This document shows positions 20,773 through 43,290 of a stretch of DNA of 43,420 bases, piece after piece (positions within the stretch are counted from its first letter, which is position 1; every line of letters starts with the position of its first letter). The notes under the pieces were generated by a model that did not search any database, was not told where the DNA came from, and saw nothing but the letters and a program-made list of their open reading frames with translations. This DNA comes from Acinetobacter phage SH-Ab 15497, in the sequence record MG674163.1; one strand, given 5' to 3'. The position numbers were made by a program, and so were the translations under genes.

Positions 20773-21137
20773 AGAATACGCCCCGCTTCAACGGGTTTCC
20801 ACGAGGCGGGACGGAAGGAGTACCTCCGCTATATACATAGCAGCCGAGGTTCCGAGGCCAAGGACGGGCCTCTCGTTTTACAAAATGTGCGGTTGCCGAG
20901 TTACTTGTACGCACGCGGGAGTCGGAAACTGTCGCCCGTTGACAATATTCGGAATCGGGAGCAACCGAGCAACCGAGAGAAGAAACATACCGTCTGACGG
21001 GGCCTCTGAATATATCGGGCGGTTGCCTCACTCAGAGAACTCGGAGCAACCGAGCAACCGAGCAACCACTGTAAGAAACACTGTATTCTACAGCCTAGGC
21101 CCTCAAAGAGGTCTTCGATAGACACTCTCTCGGATCC
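20773..21137. repeat. Inverted-repeat module A with tandem GTTGCTCG octamers and small palindromes
   Basis: Its reverse complement aligns by eye with 42966..43290 over about 300 bp. It holds octamer arrays (GAGCAACC x2 at 20957..20975 and x3 at 21044..21068), the palindrome CCGTCTGACGG, and TGTCAACGGGCGACA. Confidence 0.7.
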
Positions 21138-21157
21138 CCACGTGCGTAAAAGAGAGA

Positions 21158-25056: not shown

Positions 25057-25133
25057 GCGCTTATAGCTCAGTAGGATAGAGCGATCCCCTCCTAAGGGAT
25101 AGGCCACAAGTTCGATTCTTGTTAAGCGCACCA
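25057..25133 (+). tRNA. tRNA-Arg, anticodon CCU, reads AGG
   Basis: The cloverleaf folds by hand: acceptor GCGCTTA/TAAGCGC, D-arm GCTC..GAGC, anticodon stem ATCCC/GGGAT with loop CTCCTAA, T-arm ACAAG-TTCGATT-CTTGT, discriminator A and an encoded CCA. Confidence 0.85.
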
Positions 25134-25258
25134 AGTAGTTAAATCAAAGAGCGTGGGCGTTCAAAACCATAACCTGTCGGAGATAAGGCAACCCCAGTGT
25201 CCCTCCCGTCCGACCTAGATCAAGGCAGGTAGTCCGCTCTTTTTGATTTAACTACTAG
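25133..25258 (+). repeat. 21-bp inverted repeat flanking an 80-nt segment immediately 3' of the tRNA; possible processing structure or sRNA
   Basis: AAGTAGTTAAATCAAAGAGCG (25133..25153) pairs with CGCTCTTTTTGATTTAACTACT (25234..25255), with a 2-nt bulge. Confidence 0.5.
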
Positions 25259-25278: not shown

Positions 25279-25617
25279 ATGCCTACAGTATACGTGGTAC
25301 AAGAAAATCCCCGCATGAACTACCTCCCAGCGGAGAAGTTCGGCGAGGTGAAGTTTTTGACTGCATCGGAGTTCAGTCCGTCGCAGCACAGCTTACGCAA
25401 TAAGCAGATTTTGGAACAGGTCATGGAAAACCTGTCAAATTTTGACCCAGACAAGGATTACCTTGTTCTGAGCGGCAATCCTATCATCATGGGGTTCGTG
25501 TTCAGCCTTCTGATTCAAAAGAAAGGATACCTTCGGGTGCTGTGGTATCACAGTATAGACCGCGAGTATGTGGAAGTAAACTTCAACCCATCGCAAATTT
25601 TGTCGATGAGCAGTTAA
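25279..25617 (+). CDS. Hypothetical protein, 112 aa
   Basis: The start is embedded in GGAGATAAGAGATG (25268..25281). Confidence 0.55.
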   Translation: MPTVYVVQENPRMNYLPAEKFGEVKFLTASEFSPSQHSLRNKQILEQVMENLSNFDPDKDYLVLSGNPIIMGFVFSLLIQKKGYLRVLWYHSIDREYVEVNFNPSQILSMSS

Positions 25618-25636
25618 CACATTTTGGAGATAAGAG

Positions 25637-26173
25637 ATGTCATTGGATCAAGAAATTATTAACCAGTTAGCGTACGAAAACCTTAACACCATGGAGAAGT
25701 TCCATCTGACCATGGAATTAATTCAGATATTGACAGGTGAGTTCTCCCGTGATAAAATAGAGTCTCTAGGTGGGAAGATGCAGACGGCCGACTACGTTCG
25801 ACTGCAAGACCAACTAAACCGACTAATCGATTCCATGGGCGAATCCAAGTCGGCACTTCAAAAGACCTATGATTGGTTACGTGAGGGGAAACTCCCTGAA
25901 ATAATGGAATCACAGGAACTTGAAGGATTAAGGGTAGAAGGCGTTGGACGGGTTCATTTGCAATCTGACGTTCGGATCTCAGTCAAGGCCGACAGCAAAG
26001 CCGAAGCTTATGAATGGTTAGGGGATCATGGACACGGTGGACTGATTCAGGAAACTGTGAATTCAAGCTCCCTCAAAGCGTTCTATAAGGCAGAATTGAA
26101 GAAGGGGAATGAACTTCCCGCCGATTTATTTAATACAAGTCTGTTCACACGAGCAGTAATCACACGCAAATAA
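25637..26173 (+). CDS. Hypothetical protein, 178 aa
   Basis: The start is embedded in GGAGATAAGAGATG (25626..25639). Confidence 0.55.
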   Translation: MSLDQEIINQLAYENLNTMEKFHLTMELIQILTGEFSRDKIESLGGKMQTADYVRLQDQLNRLIDSMGESKSALQKTYDWLREGKLPEIMESQELEGLRVEGVGRVHLQSDVRISVKADSKAEAYEWLGDHGHGGLIQETVNSSSLKAFYKAELKKGNELPADLFNTSLFTRAVITRK

Positions 26174-26184
26174 GGAAGACGACC

Positions 26185-26493
26185 ATGTCTAAAGTAGTAA
26201 TCCGTTCTAAATTAGGTTCAGTATCAGCAGTTCAATTAGGTCTTGCTGTAGCAATCTTAGCATCTGCAAACGAAGTATTTGCAGAAAAACCAGAATTAAA
26301 AGCAACTCAGGTGATCACTCCTGACAATGAAATCACTGTTGTAAGCAAAGTGAAAGACGGCGTGACAATCGAATTCACTGGTCGTGAATATAAAGCAGCA
26401 AATGTGGCTCGTGTAGCTGCAGCACCTGCGCCAGTTGCAACAGAATCAAAATCTGCTGATGCGGGTGTTGTTGATAACGACGACGCAGAATAA
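26185..26493 (+). CDS. Hypothetical abundant early protein with an acidic C-terminus, 102 aa
   Basis: An AGGAAG RBS is present. Its strongly A/T-ending codon usage (tta, gta, gca, tct, cgt) differs from neighbouring genes. The hydrophobic N-terminal segment could be a signal or TM helix. Confidence 0.55.
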   Translation: MSKVVIRSKLGSVSAVQLGLAVAILASANEVFAEKPELKATQVITPDNEITVVSKVKDGVTIEFTGREYKAANVARVAAAPAPVATESKSADAGVVDNDDAE

Positions 26494-26496
26494 GCA

Positions 26497-26525
26497 TTGC
26501 AGGTCAGTGCCGCCAGTGATATAAT
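26497..26525 (+). promoter_or_regulatory. Sigma70-like promoter TTGCAG-17-TATAAT with the -10 inside a GTGCCGCCA/TGGCGGCAC hairpin
   Basis: The hexamers are at 26497..26502 and 26520..26525. The hairpin arms are at 26508..26516 and 26525..26533. Confidence 0.4.
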
Positions 26526-26609
26526 GGCGGCACACCACCTAGACACTGGTGGTTAAATAAAAGGTCAGAATTAAGTAACAAATAAGCGAACGCCCTAGGA
26601 GATATAGAG

Positions 26610-27362
26610 ATGGCAAAAGCTCAAAACGAAGTAGCAACCCAAGAATCTGGATTGGCTGTACCTGATTTCCTTAAGGAAATGATGAACGACAACCGCGGTT
26701 CAGAAGACGTAGGCGCTGATGATATTGTCATTCCGCGACTGGAATTAGTGCAATCGTTATCAAAATGCCGTAAAAAAACCGACCCTGCTTACATCGCGGG
26801 AGCGGAAGAAGGCATGCTATACAACTCAGTAACCCGCGAGTTGTACGGTGAGTCAGTTCAGGTGGTTCCAGTCACATTCAAGAAGGAATTCTTGTTGTGG
26901 CGTGAACAAGACTTGGGCGGCGGTTTCGGTGGTGCTTACCCTACAGAAGGCGAAGCTCATGACGCGAAAGCGGCACAGGAAAAGCCTGATGAATGGGAAA
27001 TTGTGGATACGGCACAGCATTTCTGCTTGCTAATCCAAGAAGGACAGGATCCGCAAGAAATTGTGATTTCTATGTCCAAATCGAAGGGCAAGTGCTCACG
27101 CAAGTGGAACTCTATGGTCCGCTTAAACGGCGGCCCACGTTTCAGTCGTGTGTATGAAGTAGTCGGCATCGGCGATCAAAACTCTGCAGGTCAAGATTAC
27201 CATACCCTTGATGTGAAAAACGTCGGGTTCGTGAACGAAGCACAATTTAAACGTGCAGAAAAGGTCTATGAATTGATTCAAGCAGGCAAAATGACTGCTG
27301 ACCGATCTGTGGAGGGTGAATCACCTGCAGGACAAGACGCAGACAACAGCGGCGAGTTCTAA
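26610..27362 (+). CDS. ssDNA-binding protein candidate, T7 gp2.5-like
   Basis: The 250 aa protein starts MAK and has an acidic C-terminal tail ending in Phe (..QDADNSGEF). It lies upstream of the dCMP deaminase, helicase and polymerase genes. Confidence 0.4.
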   Translation: MAKAQNEVATQESGLAVPDFLKEMMNDNRGSEDVGADDIVIPRLELVQSLSKCRKKTDPAYIAGAEEGMLYNSVTRELYGESVQVVPVTFKKEFLLWREQDLGGGFGGAYPTEGEAHDAKAAQEKPDEWEIVDTAQHFCLLIQEGQDPQEIVISMSKSKGKCSRKWNSMVRLNGGPRFSRVYEVVGIGDQNSAGQDYHTLDVKNVGFVNEAQFKRAEKVYELIQAGKMTADRSVEGESPAGQDADNSGEF

Positions 27363-27421: not shown

Positions 27422-27943
27422 ATGTTCTTAACTAAACCAGAAATCGACCTATATTTAGACATCGCAATCCGTGCGGCGCAAGAGTCGAAGATAGACAAGG
27501 CCAAGGTAGGCTGTGTAAATTTATATGCTAGTGGCTTGATGTCGCTCGGATGGAATCAAATGCCTGAGGGACCAACTTACCCTGACGACGGCCGCCTCCA
27601 CTCAGTGCACGCAGAAGCTGCGGCATCATCTTTGGCTTGGAAAAATGGGCACTCAACCAAACACCACTACAAATTCATCAGTCAGGAGCCTTGCCTTGCA
27701 TGTGCCAAACAGGCGTACTCAGAGGGGGCCACGGCTGTCGTTTTCTTTAAGCCGTACGGCATCGTAGAGGGTCTGCGCTACTTATATAGCCGCGGCATTG
27801 ACGTAGTGGTAAGAAAAGAAAACGGGACGCAGCCGAACACATACTTCTTATTAACCGAGTGGTATGAGGGGATGCCGAGTGAAGCCAAGTGGGACGACGA
27901 GTTCCGAATGTATGCTCACCCGTTGTTTCTGAACGACGCTTAG
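27422..27943 (+). CDS. dCMP / cytidine deaminase family zinc enzyme
   Basis: The zinc-binding motifs are SVHAEAAAS (H-A-E) and QEPCLACAKQ (PCxxC). The start is preceded by GAGATAATAGATATG. Confidence 0.7.
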   Translation: MFLTKPEIDLYLDIAIRAAQESKIDKAKVGCVNLYASGLMSLGWNQMPEGPTYPDDGRLHSVHAEAAASSLAWKNGHSTKHHYKFISQEPCLACAKQAYSEGATAVVFFKPYGIVEGLRYLYSRGIDVVVRKENGTQPNTYFLLTEWYEGMPSEAKWDDEFRMYAHPLFLNDA

Positions 27944-27961: not shown

Positions 27962-29440
27962 ATGGAAAAAGGTGCACAACGCTACACCATATTCGGACCA
28001 CCTGGCACTGGCAAGAGTACGGAAATAATTAAACGATTTAAGGAATATCTTGATCAGGGATACCATAAGGACCGAATTGGGTTAGTGTCGTTTACAAAGG
28101 CATCGGCCCAAGAATTAGCGGAGCGAATTGGTGTTAAAGCAGGAAAAAACATTAGTACAATCCATTCGATGTGTTATAGAATCTGCGAAGTTATCAGAGA
28201 GCAGGTTATTGGATGGCAGCATTTACGGGAATTCTCAAAAGTCGTTAAGATGGAATTCAGCGGGGCTAATCCTGACGATAGTGAGGAACTCACCGAAGGC
28301 GATGTTTATCTCTCTCTACATGGACTCGCCGTCGCTACCCGTGAGGCGTATCGGGAAGTTTACATGCGGTCAGATCGTGTGGGGTCTATGGCGCAGTTTT
28401 TATGGTTCTGCGAATCTTATGACGACTGGAAACGGGAAAGTGGTTATGTCGATTTCGGAGATATGCTGGTTGATGCACTCCAAAAACCAGCACCAGATTT
28501 CGACGTCCTGTTTGTGGATGAGGCCCAAGACTTATCCCGACTACAGTGGATGGTGATCAATCACTGGTGCCAAGATATCCCGATTGTACATGTGGCGGGC
28601 GACGATGATCAGGCGATTTATGTTTGGGGCGGTGCTGACCCGACGGGGATGTCAACGTGGGAGACGCTTCACAAAGCGGAACGCCAAGTGTTAGGCCAAT
28701 CGTGGCGAATCCCGAAATCGGTGCATGGCTTGGCCCAGTCGGTGATCCATATGGTATCAGAGCGTGTCGAAAAGCCGTACGTGTCTCGCCCCGAAGAGGG
28801 TAAACTGGAGTACATTAATAATGAATGGGCACTCCAAGCTGAGCATGGTGAAGACGTCTTGGTTCTGTACCGTTCCCACTGTTTGCGCGAAGGCATTGAG
28901 GACGTGCTCATCGCTCGCAATATCCCATACACCGTGGACAACGGAAAAGCAGGAATTCTAAACGGTAAACTTGCCAAGGCCATAGCACAGTATTTCAAGC
29001 TAGTTGAAAACATCGACAAAACTGGCATGCCGATGATGACTGACCGTGACTTGCGGATGCTCGCAAAGAACATGAAATACACGTATAAGCTGGCCGTGGA
29101 AAAAGAGGACTGGACAAGATTGGGGGGAGAATGGTATGATGTGCTTCAAGGCGATGAGCATGAATACAATTACCTGAAAGCGGTCTATTCTACTCATGGC
29201 ATGCGGGTGCGCCCTACAATACATTTATCATCAATCCACGGGTCCAAGGGACGGGAGGCAGATCACGTGATTCTGCTGAACGGTGTGACTGAACGGACCA
29301 GTGGGAATATGGCGATGTCACAGGCCAATTATGATGCTGAAATGCGTACGTTCTATGTAGGCGTAACACGTGCCCGCCACAAATTGACAATAGTAGAGGG
29401 ACCTAACCCACTACGTGAAATACGCAACACTTGGAGATAA
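27962..29440 (+). CDS. Superfamily 1 DNA helicase (UvrD/RecD-like)
   Basis: It has Walker A (FGPPGTGKST), motif II (LFVDEAQDL), RIPKSV, and a C-terminal VGVTRARHKLTIV block. Confidence 0.7.
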   Translation: MEKGAQRYTIFGPPGTGKSTEIIKRFKEYLDQGYHKDRIGLVSFTKASAQELAERIGVKAGKNISTIHSMCYRICEVIREQVIGWQHLREFSKVVKMEFSGANPDDSEELTEGDVYLSLHGLAVATREAYREVYMRSDRVGSMAQFLWFCESYDDWKRESGYVDFGDMLVDALQKPAPDFDVLFVDEAQDLSRLQWMVINHWCQDIPIVHVAGDDDQAIYVWGGADPTGMSTWETLHKAERQVLGQSWRIPKSVHGLAQSVIHMVSERVEKPYVSRPEEGKLEYINNEWALQAEHGEDVLVLYRSHCLREGIEDVLIARNIPYTVDNGKAGILNGKLAKAIAQYFKLVENIDKTGMPMMTDRDLRMLAKNMKYTYKLAVEKEDWTRLGGEWYDVLQGDEHEYNYLKAVYSTHGMRVRPTIHLSSIHGSKGREADHVILLNGVTERTSGNMAMSQANYDAEMRTFYVGVTRARHKLTIVEGPNPLREIRNTWR

Positions 29441-29443
29441 GAG

Positions 29444-31318
29444 ATGGCATTCCCGAATATTGAACAGTATCCTCAAATTTCTGTCGACTGCGAGTCCACG
29501 GGTCTTGAGTGGTATAAGGAGGACCGAGCGTTCGGTGTCTCTATTTATCTACCAACTGGCGACGCTGAATACTATGACATCCGAAAGGACCGCAACGCAT
29601 TCCATTGGATGAAGGACAACTTGTGGAAAGCCAAGAAGATCGTCAACCACAACATCAAATTCGATATCCATATGTTGCGGGCGACAGGGATTAACCTTAA
29701 TCCCGCCAATTGTGAATGTACGATGATCAGGGCGGCATTAATTGATGAACACCTCCTCAAGTATGACCTAGATTCACTGCTCAAGAAATACTTAAAGATG
29801 TCAAAGGATAACGACATCTATGCGGATTTAGCACAAATATTCGGAGGCCAACCTACTCGTAAAGTGCAAATCCTGAACCTACACCGTGCACCAGTTGACC
29901 TAGTTGCCCGATATGCCAACATCGATACCGAGGGAGCATATAAACTGTGGGAGTGGCAGGAGGGCGAAATCGAACGCCAAGACCTTCACCAAGTGTGGCA
30001 ACTGGAACGCCGCCTATTCAGGCACATCGTGGAAATGGAACGCCGTGGGATCCGCATCGACCCGAACGAGGCAAACCGCCGTGCGGAGGAACTGGACCGA
30101 GTGACGGCAGAAACTGTGGCCGAATTGAACAGGCTGGCTGGGTTTGAAGTGAACCCGAACCCATCAGGGTCGATCAAGAAATTGTTCAACCCTAAGCAAA
30201 ATGAGGCAGGGATTTGGGTCGCACGTGATGGTACTCCATTACCCAAGACCGATTCGGGCGCACCAAGCCTTGGGGCCAAATCACTGGAATCAATGACTGA
30301 CCCATGCGCCAAGTTGATCTTAAAGGCCCGAAAACTGAACAAGACCAAGGATACCTTTATTCGAGGCCACGTACTGGGACACGCCATTCAAAACGGACAG
30401 GACTGGTTTGTACACCCAAACATCAACCAGACCAAGAGCGACACGGGCGACGGCTCAGAGGGCACGGGAACTGGACGCCTATCATATACCCGACCAGCCC
30501 TGCAGCAGATTCCATCACGTGACAAGGAGATTGCATCAATTGTGCGCCCGATCTTCCTACCTGACCGTGGTCAAAAATGGTCATATGGTGACTTAGACCA
30601 ACATGAATTCCGAATATTTGCCCACTACGCAAACCCGAAGGATATTATCGAAGCCTATGCCCAAAATCCCGATCTAGACATGCATCAAATCGTGGCCGAC
30701 CTAACTGGAATGCCACGGTCAGCAACCAAAGCGGGGGAGGCGAACGCCAAGCAGATCAACTTAGGCATGGTCTTCAACATGGGCGCGGGTGAATTGGCCT
30801 CACAGATGGGACTACCATTCACAATTGAATCGGTGGATTTCGGCGATCATGTGCATGACCTGAAAAAGGCAGGGCCTGAGACACTGGAAATCGTCGAAAA
30901 CTATTATGCCAAGGTGCAGGGGGTGAAGGAAATGGCCCGTAAAGCTAGAACTATCGCCAAATCACGCGGATATGTTAGAACTTTGATGGGACGTCACATC
31001 CGATTCCCGCGTGGGATGTTCACATATAAAGCGTCTGGTTTGATCTTCCAAGGAACCGCTGGCGATCTAAACAAGCTCAATATCTGTAACATTGCGGAGT
31101 ACTTGGAATCTGAGTGCCCATATAACCGTCTATTGTTGAATATCCACGACGAGTATTCAGTATCATTGGAGGATGACGGCAAGGAGATTAAGCACCTGAA
31201 AGAACTTCAAGGATTGGTACAGCATCGCCCAGAGCTTAGAGTGCCTATCCGAATCGATTTTTCACATCCTGCGCCTAACTGGTGGCTAGCCACCCGCGCA
31301 GACCTAGCAACAAAATAA
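29444..31318 (+). CDS. dpoZ: Family A DNA polymerase with 3'-5' exonuclease domain; DpoZ candidate
   Basis: The Exo I motif is ISVDCESTGL. Pol motif A is GDLDQHEFRIFAHYA, motif B is RSATKAGEANAKQINLGMVFNMG, and motif C is LNIHDEYSV. The start is inside GGAGATAAGAGATG and overlaps the helicase TAA stop. Confidence 0.8.
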   Translation: MAFPNIEQYPQISVDCESTGLEWYKEDRAFGVSIYLPTGDAEYYDIRKDRNAFHWMKDNLWKAKKIVNHNIKFDIHMLRATGINLNPANCECTMIRAALIDEHLLKYDLDSLLKKYLKMSKDNDIYADLAQIFGGQPTRKVQILNLHRAPVDLVARYANIDTEGAYKLWEWQEGEIERQDLHQVWQLERRLFRHIVEMERRGIRIDPNEANRRAEELDRVTAETVAELNRLAGFEVNPNPSGSIKKLFNPKQNEAGIWVARDGTPLPKTDSGAPSLGAKSLESMTDPCAKLILKARKLNKTKDTFIRGHVLGHAIQNGQDWFVHPNINQTKSDTGDGSEGTGTGRLSYTRPALQQIPSRDKEIASIVRPIFLPDRGQKWSYGDLDQHEFRIFAHYANPKDIIEAYAQNPDLDMHQIVADLTGMPRSATKAGEANAKQINLGMVFNMGAGELASQMGLPFTIESVDFGDHVHDLKKAGPETLEIVENYYAKVQGVKEMARKARTIAKSRGYVRTLMGRHIRFPRGMFTYKASGLIFQGTAGDLNKLNICNIAEYLESECPYNRLLLNIHDEYSVSLEDDGKEIKHLKELQGLVQHRPELRVPIRIDFSHPAPNWWLATRADLATK

Positions 31319-31321
31319 GTA

Positions 31322-31350
31322 TTGACCCCCAATCCTGCCTGTAGTATAAT
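31322..31350 (+). promoter_or_regulatory. Sigma70-like promoter TTGACC-17-TATAAT with the -10 flanked by CCTGCC/GGCAGG hairpin arms
   Basis: The hexamers are at 31322..31327 and 31345..31350. The spacer contains the cccaatc element shared with the promoters at 35745, 39199 and 42270. Confidence 0.5.
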
Positions 31351-31376
31351 GGGCAGGTCTACTACGGAGATTAGAG

Positions 31377-31676
31377 ATGACACAGCAATATGATAATCGC
31401 AACTCTGGCGCATTGTTTCCAAACGATCGCAAGACTAAGCAATCACACCCAGATTATAAGGGTACAATGACTGACGCAGACGGTCAGGAGTTTTGGATTT
31501 CGGCTTGGGTCAAGCAGGGCAGAAAAGGCGAATTCCTATCATTGGCGTTTGAAAAGAAAGAGGACCGACCTGCTGAGGGACCACGAACCTTGGGCGGCTC
31601 GACCCCTAAGCCATCGGCCCCTAAACAGAACCGCAATCCACCTCCTGCAGACCTTGATGACGACCTTCCATTCTAA
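31377..31676 (+). CDS. Small protein with an SSB-like C-terminal tail (DDDLPF)
   Basis: The 99 aa protein has a Pro/Gly-rich linker (GPRTLGGSTPKPSAPKQNRNPPP) and the terminal DLDDDLPF, which matches the bacterial SSB C-terminal tip motif DDDIPF. The start is inside GGAGATTAGAGATG. Confidence 0.5.
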   Translation: MTQQYDNRNSGALFPNDRKTKQSHPDYKGTMTDADGQEFWISAWVKQGRKGEFLSLAFEKKEDRPAEGPRTLGGSTPKPSAPKQNRNPPPADLDDDLPF

Positions 31677-31688
31677 GAGTAAACAGAC

Positions 31689-32852
31689 ATGAAAAAAGCA
31701 ACAGTAATTTGTGATATGCAATTCGGTTCAACTGGTAAAGGCCTAATCGCTGGCTTCTTGGCTGAACGTGACCAACCAGATGTAGTAGTAACGGCTTGGT
31801 CAGCAAACGCGGGACATACTTACATCAACCGCGAAGGACGCAAGTGGGTGCATTGCATGCTGGCCAACGGCATCGTGTCACCTAAACTTAAGGCAGTATT
31901 GATCGGCGGCGGCTCTCAAATGTCGATCCCTACTTTAATATCTGAGATCATGGGATCATTGGACATTCTCCAAGGTAAATCGATTCTAATTCACGAGAAT
32001 GCATGTATCATTCAGCAACGCCATGTGGAAGAAGAAGCAGGCCCAATGACCAAGATCGGTTCTACTAAGAAGGGCTGTGGTGCGGCAATGATGGAAAAAA
32101 TCCGTCGCAACCCTGAATCTAAAATCGTAGCGAAAGACTTCATCGACGATGGCTTAGAGATCCCAGATTTCAAGCTAGACGGAACAGTTGGATTTAAGGA
32201 CATCTCGCGCCACTTCGAGGAATTAGGTGTCTGCATTAAAGTAGTGAGCAATGAAGTGTATCTGGCCGTACTCCACAAGGCCGAGCGTGTGCAAGTGGAA
32301 GGCGCTCAGGGTTTCAGTCTAGGTCTGCATAATGGATTCTACCCATATGTAACATCGCGTGAATGTACGCCTGCTCAGATTTGTAGCGACTGCAACGTGC
32401 CGATTTCAATGGTCGACAAGGTAGTGGGCACAATGCGCACCTACCCGATACGTGTGGCCAATCGTTTTGACGATGAAGGAAAAATGGTCGGATGGTCAGG
32501 GCCGTGTTACTCGGACCAAACGGAACTTACTTGGGAACAAATGGGTGTCACCCCTGAGAAGACCACCGTGACCAAACTGACCCGCCGTATTTTTAGTTTC
32601 AGCCGCATGCAGACCCGTCAGGCAATGCTGGTATGTATGCCAGATGAAATTTTCTTGAACTTCGCCAACTATTGTGCAAGCGAAGACGAGTTGGCATCGA
32701 TCATCGAAGTGATTTCAAACGAAGGCGGTGACGTATCATACATCGGGTGGGGCGACTCCGCTGCGCACATTGAGACAACGCTCGAAGGCGATTGGTCCGA
32801 CGACACTAATCCGTTGTTCAACCAATACAACAAATCATCAAATATAGCATAA
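31689..32852 (+). CDS. purZ: Adenylosuccinate synthetase homolog; PurZ candidate (2-aminoadenine pathway)
   Basis: The PurA-family blocks are SANAGHTYI (PurA GHNAGHT), GSTKKGCGAA (PurA GTTGRGIGPA) and EGAQGFSLGLHNGFYPYVTSR (PurA [21 protein letters not shown]). The P-loop is GSTGKGL instead of the canonical GDEGKGK. At 387 aa it is shorter than host PurA. Confidence 0.75.
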   Translation: MKKATVICDMQFGSTGKGLIAGFLAERDQPDVVVTAWSANAGHTYINREGRKWVHCMLANGIVSPKLKAVLIGGGSQMSIPTLISEIMGSLDILQGKSILIHENACIIQQRHVEEEAGPMTKIGSTKKGCGAAMMEKIRRNPESKIVAKDFIDDGLEIPDFKLDGTVGFKDISRHFEELGVCIKVVSNEVYLAVLHKAERVQVEGAQGFSLGLHNGFYPYVTSRECTPAQICSDCNVPISMVDKVVGTMRTYPIRVANRFDDEGKMVGWSGPCYSDQTELTWEQMGVTPEKTTVTKLTRRIFSFSRMQTRQAMLVCMPDEIFLNFANYCASEDELASIIEVISNEGGDVSYIGWGDSAAHIETTLEGDWSDDTNPLFNQYNKSSNIA

Positions 32853-32864
32853 GGACTACCGCAC

Positions 32865-34022
32865 ATGTCAGGCAATAAATTCGACCAAGAAAAAGTTGAC
32901 CTACATGTGCTCGACCCTTTCTTTATAGAGGGTACGGCACGTGTGGCACAATTCGGGGAACAAAAATACGGGCGTTCAAATTGGATGCAGGGACTGACCC
33001 AGACACGCATCATAAACGCGATCAAGCGACACATTGCACAAATCGAAAAAGGAGAAGACATCGATGAAGAGTCAGGATTCCACCACGCTTACCACGCAGC
33101 ATGGGGATGCCAAGTACTCGCCTACCAACACCGAAACGGGCAAACCCATCTCGACGATCGCCGTTGGTCAGAAAGTGTTCGAGACGCTGACACTAAAATC
33201 GGGACATGTGAGGGTATTAGCGGACATACCGTGCCGTGCATGTATGAAGGTCCCTTTGGAAGGCTACACCCTGTCGATGGCGAAAAAGATGGACTGGTTA
33301 TGTCCTTCGTGCAATCAGAAGCAGATGAGGGAACGGCGCAAGGCGACCCAATCCAACAACTACAACAAATGATCTCTGAGTGGGCCGATCAAGTATATCC
33401 AGACCGTACAGTTGAAAACGCCCTCACTAAAATGATGCTGCATGAAATCCCTGAATTGTTGCACGGCAAAGCCATGGATCCTGCAGAATTCGCAGACGTA
33501 GCGATCTTATTGTTTGACGTGGCCCACCTCCAAGGAATCGACATAGCACAAGCCATGCGCGAAAAGATGGAAATAAACCAAGCACGCGACTGGAAAATAG
33601 ACCCTGCCACTGGTCTGATGTCACACGTGAAGCCGAAAGGAATGATGGAAACAATACGCGACGCCGTCCAAGGGATAGGTGACGCGGCTAGAATTATGGC
33701 GGCCCCTAGTCGTTTGCTCAATGGCAACAATATGGAACTTGCAGAATATACAGCCGAAACCCTTCCGAAACCGCCCGAAAAACCTTGGGAAATCACTATC
33801 CCAAACTGGGCTTTAAAGACAGAGGAGGGCACGCATATAAAGCTTCGCGCAGGGTCTGGAGTATTTGGACGAGTAAAATATCAGTCTCAATGTATATTAA
33901 TGCACAAGAACATGCGCAAACGCAGCCACCTAGAAACTTATTACTGTGCCACAATCAAAGACACAGTAACAGAAGATGAATACAACGTACCTTGGAGCGA
34001 GATTGAACCATGGACAAACTAA
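32865..34022 (+). CDS. mazZ: Two-domain nucleotide pyrophosphohydrolase, N-terminal dATP/dGTP-PPase-like domain plus MazG-like domain; MazZ candidate
   Basis: The N-terminal domain has [11 protein letters not shown], which is DUF550/dATP_dGTP_PPHyd-like. The central MazG-like helical block is [32 protein letters not shown]...[20 protein letters not shown]. Confidence 0.6.
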
Positions 34023-34621
34023 ACATCCGTGACATCCTTCGGGCACAAGATGTGACCCGTTGGCAAATTGTCCGCACCAAGAAACAATCAGTGGCAGAAC
34101 ACACCTTCGCAGTGCAGGCCGTCTTGATGCGTCTTGTGCCACTCCTTATATCTACGTATACAGCACCTATGAAAGTAGGATTTGAGGAGCGGTTGTTATG
34201 TGAGTGCATAATGGGGGCCTTCTGGCATGATATTCCTGAGGTGATCACTGGAGATATTGCGTCTCCAGTTAAGCGCCTTATACGGGACGGGGGCGACATA
34301 ACCCCGTTGGATGACCTAGAGAAAAAGGTGGATCCAGCGTTCATTAAGTGCTACACGGCGGCCAAGCCTCTGACATTGGCGATCATCAAGTGTGCAGATT
34401 TAATGGAAATGGTGTACCACCTAAACGAATACGGCGACCAACGCGCAAACTCCCACTCATGGAGAGTGCAACATGGCATTAACAACGCATTCCATGAACA
34501 CATACACAATTGCAGCGAGAATTTCCCAGCTTTTAAATGGGATGTCGCCCATGGGTTGCTGATTGAAATGCTGGACCCGTCGCAAGAAACGGATATTGAC
34601 TCTATAGTGAATGGAATATGA
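34010..34621 (+). CDS. datZ: HD-domain phosphohydrolase; DatZ (dATP triphosphohydrolase) candidate
   Basis: The HD motif elements are AEHTF (His) and [13 protein letters not shown] (HD...D). The gene overlaps the mazZ-like stop and the downstream nuclease start. Confidence 0.65.
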
Positions 34622-35085
34622 AGCCTGAACAAAAGCTGTACCAAGACCTGAAAACAAAAGCTCTTGACAAATTGGTAGGTGTGCGTCATGATCGAGTGGA
34701 GCCGATGTTCGGCTTCGCGATCCCAGACTTGACTTTCACATACGAAGGCCATCACGGGTGGATCGAACTTAAGGTGTGTGAATATCTTAAAGCCAAAGGA
34801 TGTGAAGGGAATAAAGTCCCGATGCAATCACCAGTTAAAATGGACTGGCGCCCCAACCAGCGCAAATGGTTATACGACCGTGATCGCCTAGGTGGCAATT
34901 GCTGGTTGCTTGTGTGGCATCACACAGGATACTATGCCCTTAAAGGCATATACGCGATGCAGGTTGCAGAAGCCATGAGCTTATCAGTTACCATAAGCCC
35001 CCAAGAGTTGACAGGGGGATACTACGCCCTCCACTCTACCGACCTAAACCCGAAATTTTTACGCAGAATCATGCAAGGGAAATAA
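34618..35085 (+). CDS. VRR-NUC / PD-(D/E)xK nuclease
   Basis: The PD-(D/E)xK motif is AIPDLTF..GHHGWIELK, followed by PNQRKWLYDRDRLGGNCWLLVW, which is VRR-NUC-like. Confidence 0.6.
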   Translation: MKPEQKLYQDLKTKALDKLVGVRHDRVEPMFGFAIPDLTFTYEGHHGWIELKVCEYLKAKGCEGNKVPMQSPVKMDWRPNQRKWLYDRDRLGGNCWLLVWHHTGYYALKGIYAMQVAEAMSLSVTISPQELTGGYYALHSTDLNPKFLRRIMQGK

Positions 35086-35713: not shown

Positions 35714-35744
35714 CCGCTCGTCGGGCCTTGTTGACAAAATATAT

Positions 35745-35773
35745 TGACAAGGCCCCCAATCTATGGTATAATA
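35745..35773 (+). promoter_or_regulatory. Strong consensus promoter TTGACA-aggcccccaatctatgg-TATAAT; second TTGACA at 35731 inside a GGGCCTTG/CAAGGCCC hairpin
   Basis: The hexamers are at 35745..35750 and 35768..35773 with 17-nt spacing. The hairpin arms are at 35723..35730 and 35748..35755. A conserved leader ATTTGAAAGGCGGCAGGGGTCGC follows. Confidence 0.6.
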
Positions 35774-35831
35774 AAATTTGAAAGGCGGCAGGGGTCGCTG
35801 AAATGGGAAGGGTCCCAATCGGAGATTAGAG

Positions 35832-39198: not shown

Positions 39199-39227
39199 TT
39201 GACAAGGCCCCCAATCTATGTTATAAT
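39199..39227 (+). promoter_or_regulatory. Consensus promoter TTGACA-aggcccccaatctatgt-TATAAT with conserved leader
   Basis: It is nearly identical to the 35745 promoter. The leader is AGATTTGAAGGCGGGCAGGGGCCGCGCC, followed by GAGATTAGAGAT. Confidence 0.6.
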
Positions 39228-39276
39228 AAGATTTGAAGGCGGGCAGGGGCCGCGCCAAGAGATTAGAGATATTGAA

Positions 39277-42269: not shown

Positions 42270-42298
42270 TTGACAAGATCCCCAATCTATGATATAAT
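42270..42298 (+). promoter_or_regulatory. Consensus promoter TTGACA-agatccccaatctatga-TATAAT
   Basis: It has the same ccccaatctatg spacer core as the 35745 and 39199 promoters. GAGATCAGAGAT follows at 42309..42320. Confidence 0.55.
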
Positions 42299-42327
42299 AA
42301 AGTCTTAAGAGATCAGAGATAAACAAT

Positions 42328-42941: not shown

Positions 42942-42965
42942 AACACTGCTCCTTTTCCCGTACGC

Positions 42966-43290
42966 GGGAATCCGAGAACCTTTCAAGGATAGACCCCTTC
43001 GAGGGTCTAGGCTGTAGGATACAGTGTTTCTAGTGGTTCGGTTGCTCGGTTGCTTCTGCTGCCAGTGGTGAAGCAACCGCCCGAAGCCCCCGTCCGACGG
43101 GGTTTCTGAGTATATCGGTTGCTCGGTTGCTCGGTTGCTCGGTATTTCTATATTGTCAACGAGCGACACTTTCGGCTCTCCACACGCGCACCAAGGTAAC
43201 TATATACCTAAAGCCCCCGTCGGACGGGACATTTACGGTTGCTTCATATAGAGAAACCACGGGGAAACCGTGGAACTTGATGGGGGATTT
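42966..43290. repeat. Inverted-repeat module B, the reverse-complement partner of 20773..21137, with GTTGCTCG octamer arrays and terminator-like hairpins
   Basis: The octamer arrays are GGTTCGGTTGCTCGGTTGCTTC (43034..43058) and CGGTTGCTCGGTTGCTCGGTTGCTCGG (43117..43143). It also holds TGTCAACGAGCGACA, and the CCCCGTCCGACGGGG hairpin followed by TTTCT at 43088..43110. Confidence 0.7.

Follow-up and report, generated by a model that had tools for sequence, protein, structure and literature searches.

The replication and Z-base module

The stretch of DNA analysed here, the complete 43,420-nucleotide genome of Acinetobacter phage SH-Ab 15497 [GenBank:MG674163.1] and referred to below as the window, carries between 27.9 and 34.6 kb the replication and Z-base module of this phage, and we consider it almost certain that this module makes virion DNA in which adenine is replaced by 2-aminoadenine (Z) through the combined action of a pyrophosphohydrolase, the synthase PurZ, host enzymes, the triphosphohydrolase DatZ and the polymerase DpoZ. 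To our knowledge, no other natural DNA has one of its canonical bases wholly exchanged at the Watson-Crick face, and such Z-genomes are relevant to phage-host conflict, to phage therapy against A. baumannii and to synthetic biology. The cluster is an already characterised system, SH-Ab 15497 being one of the reference phages, and its value here is that of a positive control: the pathway, and even the lineage, were recognised from the raw sequence alone. Beyond the known system we add a third, SH3-like domain in the pyrophosphohydrolase, the absence from DpoZ of an insertion (residues 117–127) present in its phiVC8 counterpart, and a promoter-like site within a palindrome preceding ssb-purZ. 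The SH3-like domain, a division of labour within the pyrophosphohydrolase and the promoter-like site are offered as leads, not as findings. Gene identities and family memberships are taken from our own analysis, while enzyme activities and Z content are taken from the literature on SH-Ab 15497.

An exact-sequence look-up showed the DpoZ, SSB (which binds single-stranded DNA), PurZ, pyrophosphohydrolase and DatZ proteins to be identical over their full lengths to GenBank entries AUG85479–AUG85483 of SH-Ab 15497. This phage of A. baumannii is lytic and has the morphology of the Siphoviridae. Megablast matches of the window were to Acinetobacter siphophages only, the best being vB_AbaSI_2 and vB_MZM_2AB-P, which are 92–95% identical and collinear with it from end to end. 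A first-pass annotation of the same DNA had guessed at the Acinetobacter Z-siphophage lineage, partly because of a low-GC codon style. The guess was right, since the proteins are SH-Ab 15497 entries, but the argument behind it is unsupported: the genome has 47.9% GC, and the cluster genes have a GC content at third codon positions of 0.47–0.55, the neighbouring deaminase gene one of 0.59.

In the six-frame list of open reading frames (ORFs) the four genes named by that annotation lie where it had placed them, at 29444–31318, 31689–32852, 32865–34022 and 34010–34621, all on the plus strand, and all Pfam matches of the four products are above gathering scores. The cluster had been called contiguous and partly overlapping. 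Its genes are indeed co-directional, but it is not strictly contiguous: a 99-residue SSB gene (31377–31676), missed by the annotation, stands between the polymerase and PurZ, and overlap is confined to the 13 nucleotides shared by the pyrophosphohydrolase and HD-domain genes, the other junctions being gaps of 58, 12 and 12 nucleotides. The central proposal of a DpoZ/PurZ/MazZ/DatZ 2-aminoadenine pathway fared well, with curated protein names, family models of DpoZ and PurZ, solved structures of PurZ, DpoZ and MazZ, and pocket or catalytic residues all in agreement, as detailed below.

PurZ

The gene at 31689–32852 (plus strand) encodes a protein of 387 residues, identical to AUG85481 and carrying the curated name N6-succino-2-amino-2'-deoxyadenylate synthase. 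As first described, it is a PurA homolog with the P-loop GSTGKGL (G13-S14-T15-G16-K17-G18-L19) and is shorter than the 431–432-residue chains of E. coli PurA. Since its sole Pfam match is to the broad Adenylsucc_synt family (E=1.7e-30), and several GenBank relatives are annotated plainly as adenylosuccinate synthetase, one might read it as an ordinary auxiliary PurA that boosts AMP and dATP in a phage whose DNA contains normal adenine. More specific models speak for PurZ, however. The protein scores 421.5 bits against the NCBIfam model amino_Aden_PurZ (NF038379; cut-off 300), whereas with none of the PurA equivalog models does it come near the required score (48–143 bits against cut-offs of 368–700). 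Its best solved matches are PurZ of phage phiVC8 (6FM1/6FKO, E=1.4e-87) and of cyanophage S-2L (7ODX, E=4e-73), compared to 3.4e-22 or weaker for cellular PurA structures, a difference of 50–65 orders of magnitude.

The residues of the active site point the same way. Via the alignment to 7ODX we mapped the list of residues forming the dGMP pocket of S-2L PurZ (Y21, G22, S23, N49, A50, G130, S131, T132, R146, Q190, Y203, C204, T205, R240, V241 and R280) onto F12, G13, S14, N40, A41, G124, S125, T126, R140, Q207, Y220, V221, T222, R255, V256 and R299 of the window protein. Fourteen of the 16 are identical and 15 were counted as conserved, the two substitutions being C204 to V221 and Y21 to F12; Y21 of S-2L PurZ touches the ligand via its backbone only. 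The conserved serine beside the guanine 2-amino group corresponds here to S14, which replaces the P-loop aspartate. The gene is also linked to that of DatZ, a dATP-destroying enzyme, and the literature calls SH-Ab 15497 DNA natural dZ-DNA. An ordinary PurA is therefore rejected on the structure matches and NCBIfam scores, and we regard it as exceedingly improbable. In line with the assignment as PurZ, the enzyme of this phage (ApPurZ) is listed in the literature among previously characterised PurZ enzymes that convert dGMP, aspartate and ATP to N6-succino-2-amino-2'-deoxyadenylate (dSMP).

DatZ

The first-pass annotation had recognised an HD phosphohydrolase at 34010–34621 (plus strand), and Pfam finds YfbR-like (E=3.5e-09) and HD_3 domains in this 203-residue protein, which is identical to AUG85483 and is curated as a dATP triphosphohydrolase. 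The question is whether it is specific for dATP or is a general YfbR-like 5'-deoxynucleotidase acting on deoxynucleoside monophosphates. YfbR-like is its best Pfam family, NCBIfam gives only a sub-threshold match to 5'-deoxynucleotidase, and a phmmer search of the Protein Data Bank (PDB) does not separate OxsA (E=0.0027), DatZ (0.005) and YfbR (0.0076), values that are indistinguishable at about 0.003–0.008. Against this, PHROG 7076, 'dATP triphosphohydrolase', spans the full length of the protein with E=1.9e-66, and BLASTP matches it to the DatZ of phiVC8 with E=2e-16.

Conservation of individual residues also argues for DatZ. All 14 residues singled out in the report of the S-2L DatZ structure are identical in the window protein: the metal ligands H31, H73, D74 and D130 together with E77 (S-2L H34, H66, D67, D119 and E70), then R17, W18, I20, P86, K88 and K127 (S-2L R19, W20, I22, P79, K81 and K116), and finally the DatZ-conserved Q26, A29 and G81 (S-2L Q29, A32 and G74). 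In the S-2L enzyme R19, K81 and K116 bind the triphosphate, W20 gates the sugar and I22 excludes a purine 2-amino group, and the window protein keeps both its triphosphate-binding residues (R17, K88, K127) and the excluding isoleucine (I20). Its gene lies beside purZ in all relatives, and it has been used under the name 'ApdATPase' in yeast engineering. On the PHROG match, the residue conservation and the similarity to phiVC8 DatZ we reject the YfbR-like nucleotidase, to which we attach very little probability, and retain the protein as DatZ.

DpoZ

A family A DNA polymerase with a 3'-5' exonuclease domain had been noted at 29444–31318 (plus strand), and both domains are found by Pfam (DNA_pol_A, E=1.4e-46; DNA_pol_A_exo1, E=3.4e-11). 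The product, of 624 residues, is identical to AUG85479 and UniProt DPOZ_BPSHA, with the curated name DNA polymerase DpoZ, and is thus the Z-preferring polymerase of the module. It matches all 607 positions (1–607) of the NCBIfam model phage_DpoZ_1 (NF038380) at 938.7 bits against a cut-off of 500, while the DNA polymerase I equivalog model (194.7 against 720) and the second DpoZ model, phage_DpoZ_2 (37 against 350), stay below theirs. Among solved structures its best match is phiVC8 DpoZ (7PBK, E=4.6e-144), to which it is 45% identical in a scripted alignment.

Three insertions in the polymerase domain are kept, at residues 332–340, 427–433 and 458–475 (phiVC8 349–353, 442–448 and 473–491), as are the signature residues L440 and G532 (phiVC8 L455 and G548). 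Of two positions considered in helix E2, R161 (phiVC8 numbering) is conserved and M165 is replaced by isoleucine. The catalytic motifs are intact, with D15-x-E17, TGR at 343–345 and H568-D569 of motif C. Both the phiVC8 polymerase and that of SH-Ab 15497 are reported to use dZTP with a catalytic efficiency one to two orders of magnitude above that for dATP.

The two polymerases differ in the exonuclease domain, where the 11-residue insertion 117–127 of phiVC8 is absent from the window protein (at residues 104–105). This insertion has been floated as a candidate element of the switching between polymerase and exonuclease that is proposed to underlie Z selectivity. Because the DpoZ of SH-Ab 15497 is reportedly Z-selective without it, the comparison suggests that the insertion is dispensable.

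A three-module dATP/dGTP pyrophosphohydrolase

The fourth enzyme, encoded at 32865–34022 (plus strand), is a 385-residue dATP/dGTP pyrophosphohydrolase that goes in published work by the names 'DUF550' or MazZ-2; it is identical to AUG85482 and curated as a dATP/dGTP diphosphohydrolase. PHROG 801 (dATP/dGTP pyrophosphohydrolase) covers it over its full length with E=3e-140. It had been described as a MazG-like enzyme with an extra N-terminal domain resembling dATP/dGTP pyrophosphatases, and both parts are there, with PF18909 matching residues 3–98 and PF04447 matching residues 170–244. According to the literature, the SH-Ab 15497 protein joins DUF5664 and DUF550 in tandem and turns dGTP into dGMP and dATP into dAMP with release of pyrophosphate.

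The first module (residues 3–98; 32871–33158, plus strand) is a helical DUF5664 or dGTP_diPhyd_N domain (PF18909, E=2e-24; 85.9 bits, gathering score 27) and is highly conserved among relatives. A stand-alone DUF5664 protein of phage Wayne hydrolyses dATP, dGTP and dUTP, with a kcat for dATP ten times that for dGTP. The second (residues 161–256; 33345–33632, plus strand) is the MazG-like DUF550 or MazZ core (PF04447, E=5.4e-08). S-2L MazZ (7ODY) matches residues 162–255 with E=2.3e-14 and was also the top Foldseek hit for a predicted model of this module (E=3.4e-06, TM 0.79–0.81). The metal ligands E194, E197, E208 and D211 and the arginine R241 correspond to E35, E38, E50, D53 and R83 of S-2L MazZ. 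The nucleobase pocket departs from the MazZ-1 consensus, in that E34, I16 and N20 of S-2L are replaced by H193, A174 and Y178, while I56 and D60 are kept as I214 and D218. This departure fits the published assignment of the SH-Ab 15497 protein to the longer MazZ-2/DUF550 variant with dual dATP/dGTP activity, and judged by its residues the enzyme is therefore filed under DUF550/MazZ-2 and not under MazZ-1.

The third module (residues 303–385; 33771–34019, plus strand) is a putative SH3-like beta-barrel, conserved in the group, that follows a disordered, indel-rich linker. Pfam at E<=10 gave no match to this C-terminal module or to the first linker, and the searchable literature holds no mention of an SH3-like C-terminal domain in this enzyme. 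The module occurs only among the Acinetobacter Z-siphophages, and in a sister lineage its place is taken by a zinc-finger-like tail of the form CxxC...HxxxxH. Even within the group it diverges strongly: its protein identity with Bhz9, phage 53, pB23, Bhz20, Barton and JeffCo is only 40–57%, and megablast similarity to Bhz9, phage 53, pB23 and JeffCo ends at about residue 263 of the enzyme.

A division of labour between the DUF5664 and DUF550 domains is a reasonable hypothesis by analogy with their relatives. The DUF5664 domain may act mainly on dATP, because the stand-alone Wayne enzyme prefers dATP, and the DUF550/MazZ core mainly on dGTP, because S-2L MazZ acts so. A fuller version, in which the enzyme is a three-part machine whose DUF5664 domain mainly turns dATP into dAMP, whose DUF550 core mainly turns dGTP into dGMP and whose SH3-like barrel tethers it to DNA or to the replisome, is put forward tentatively and seems to us rather unlikely as a whole; the fold class of such a barrel by itself leaves its ligand undefined. 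If the enzyme were tethered in this manner, the nucleotide pool would be edited at the replication fork.

Proposed pathway to Z-containing DNA

Taken together, the five proteins and their neighbours suggest the following route. The pyrophosphohydrolase would convert dGTP to dGMP and dATP to dAMP, and PurZ would condense dGMP with aspartate, using ATP, to give dSMP. Host enzymes would then complete the route from dSMP to dZTP. DatZ would meanwhile hydrolyse dATP to deoxyadenosine and triphosphate, emptying the dATP pool, and DpoZ, with the adjacent helicase and the SSB, would place dZTP opposite T. The predicted outcome is DNA that has Z in place of all adenine and three hydrogen bonds in its Z-T pairs, and that would resist about half of the type II restriction enzymes tried on such DNA. 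Neither PurB nor a nucleotide kinase nor ThyA/ThyX is annotated in a collinear relative, and Pfam found none of them in the replication module or right arm. The host steps, established for phiVC8, are assigned here because no such genes were found.

The literature on this phage agrees with the proposed route at several points. It names phiVC8, SH-Ab 15497 and S-2L as the three phages whose dZTP pathway has been elucidated. SH-Ab 15497 DNA, its adenine completely replaced, has served as a natural standard for dZ-DNA, and yeast expressing the SH-Ab 15497 genes for PurZ, the dATPase and the DUF550 protein contained DNA with approximately 24.7% Z/(A+Z). We found nothing that contradicts the Z-pathway explanation. 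Some caveats apply. The activities are known second-hand, from citing literature; this very sequence is probably among those behind the curated hidden Markov models and PHROGs, which makes their scores partly circular; and a plain sequence search leaves DatZ unseparated from OxsA and YfbR, as described above. Neither the residue checks nor the matches to solved phiVC8 and S-2L structures depend on those models.

It could also be proposed that replacement is only partial, the cluster merely biasing the nucleotide pool towards a mixed A/Z DNA, as the Z content obtained with transplanted clusters is 7–61% in E. coli and about 25% in yeast. Those figures, however, come from heterologous systems that keep the host polymerases, while the native phage pairs two dATP-removing enzymes with a Z-selective polymerase, and SH-Ab 15497 DNA is classed in the literature among molecules with adenine completely replaced. 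We therefore hold mixed DNA to be most unlikely in the native phage and full replacement to be the better description, such that every A of this sequence is a Z in the virion.

The first-pass annotation went on to predict broad restriction resistance. Resistance there is, but it is partial: of 147 type II enzymes tried on dZ-DNA, 53% were fully or partly blocked and 47% still cut.

Comparison with known Z systems

The closest systems are those of the sister Acinetobacter Z-siphophages vB_AbaSI_2, DMU1, vB_MZM_2AB-P, Bhz20, Bhz9, pB23, phage 53, JeffCo and Barton, which have collinear genomes of about 43 kb, the same gene order in the module and 73–95% DNA identity with the window; they differ in the linkers and C-terminal module of the pyrophosphohydrolase, which diverge sharply. 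Vibrio phage phiVC8 shares a DpoZ with the identity given above, a PurZ (approximately 45–51% identical), a homologous DatZ and a small downstream ORF of the same PHROG. Its gene order is different, however, in that a primase separates purZ from the polymerase, it has a separate 86-residue MazG-like ORF where the window has the 385-residue three-module enzyme, and its DpoZ has the exonuclease insertion and M165 where the window protein lacks the former and has isoleucine for the latter.

S-2L (DatZ 6ZPA, MazZ 7ODY, PurZ 7ODX) resembles the window in its PurZ pocket, in the catalytic and specificity residues of DatZ and in the metal ligands and fold of MazZ. It replicates with a non-selective PrimPol and not with DpoZ, and its MazZ is short (a 111-residue crystallised chain) and specific for (d)GTP, whereas the window enzyme is longer and also hydrolyses dATP. 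The PurZ0 phages, such as Arthrobacter phage Wayne and Gordonia phage Ghobes, likewise make Z-DNA via a PurA-derived synthetase, and Wayne, like the window, encodes a DUF5664 protein, which in Wayne acts on dATP and dGTP. Their PurZ is only about 31% identical to that of the window, and they have DutZ and DmtZ in place of DatZ and MazZ.

Neighbouring genes

Two further proteins accompany the polymerase. The SSB of the module (plus strand), identical to AUG85480 'ssDNA binding protein' and a member of PHROG 18154 (E=2.3e-33), ends in the acidic tip DDDLPF. A UvrD-like superfamily 1 helicase is encoded at 27962–29440 (plus strand), 3 nucleotides upstream of DpoZ (Pfam UvrD-helicase, E=4.6e-26; UvrD_C, E=1.9e-15), and this position is kept in all relatives. 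In work on Salmonella phage PMBT28, addition of helicase-dpoZ-ssb raised the incorporation of Z in E. coli.

Further upstream, at 27422–27943 (plus strand), lies a gene for a dCMP-deaminase-like zinc deaminase. The domain, which the first-pass annotation had also pointed out, is real (Pfam dCMP_cyt_deam_1, E=1.3e-11; PHROG dCMP deaminase, E=1.8e-29), has HAE and PCxxC motifs, and finds its best solved match in deoxycytidylate deaminase (4P9C, E=3.3e-07). As that annotation proposed, it may supply dTTP to pair with Z, but no thymidylate synthase was found, as noted above. We do not retain it as an integral gene of the Z module, because a distant 46-kb metagenomic contig (L006), of a sister lineage, has the same module in synteny but no deaminase gene; we treat the deaminase as an accessory neighbour.

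On the other side of the cluster an ORF of 155 residues at 34618–35085 (plus strand) overlaps the stop codon of DatZ by 4 nucleotides and keeps its place after DatZ in all relatives. It belongs to PHROG 2165 (E=7.4e-34), which is labelled 'DNA helicase', a label that is implausible given the size of the protein, and it has no match in Pfam or the PDB. It is weakly similar to phiVC8 p23 (E=0.007) around an IELK motif, and this motif recalls PD-(D/E)xK nucleases. The ORF is a possible member of the Z module.

Between the tRNA described below and the deaminase, at 25279–27362, lie three genes in a row that belong by their matches to the gp32-, gp33- and gp34-like families of phage Pam3 (E=3e-30, 7e-39 and 2.4e-75). 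The gene of the gp34-like family, whose product is labelled 'primase' by pharokka, heads the same syntenic Z/replication block on contig L006.

Promoter-like site, repeats and composition

The 58-nucleotide gap between the DpoZ and SSB genes contains a promoter-like site, TTGACC-N17-TATAAT (31322–31350, plus strand), which agrees with the consensus at 11 of 12 positions. Its -10 element lies inside a palindrome with arms CCTGCC (31334–31339) and GGCAGG (31352–31357). The site is conserved in four relatives, in which TATAAT is invariant, and in JeffCo the two arms of the palindrome have changed together (CCCGATC/GATCGGG), a compensatory pattern. The palindrome could be an operator or a hairpin controlling ssb-purZ-mazZ-datZ, and a separate transcription unit may start from this site.

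In the right arm, small-gene blocks are headed by three copies of a 55-nucleotide element (35744–35798, 39199–39253 and 42270–42324), two of which share 89% identity. The element begins with a promoter that fits the sigma-70 consensus perfectly (TTGACA-N17-TATAAT) and has a TG extension. The motif CCCAATC is common to this repeat family and to the promoter-like site at 31322, but its register in the spacer differs, and we have not counted it as evidence.

Two sets of tandem 8-nucleotide iterons are also present. The unit GAGCAACC is repeated at approximately 20959–21080, where the structural module meets the replication module, and its reverse complement GGTTGCTC at 43033–43147, near the right end of the genome. 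Both sets, in the regions 20925–21156 and 42949–43173, lie within longer inverted arms (83 nucleotides, 76% complementary), and they could be an origin or regulator-binding sites. The replication module contains a single tRNA gene, for tRNA-Arg with anticodon CCT (25057–25133), which is followed by a 23-nucleotide inverted repeat (25134–25156 and 25234–25256).

Over the window as a whole, the plus strand contains 29.5% A, 22.7% T, 25.5% G and 22.4% C, a strong excess of purines and of A over T on the coding strand, and cumulative GC skew climbs monotonically from one end to the other. These skews fit the gene layout, since almost all genes lie on one strand.

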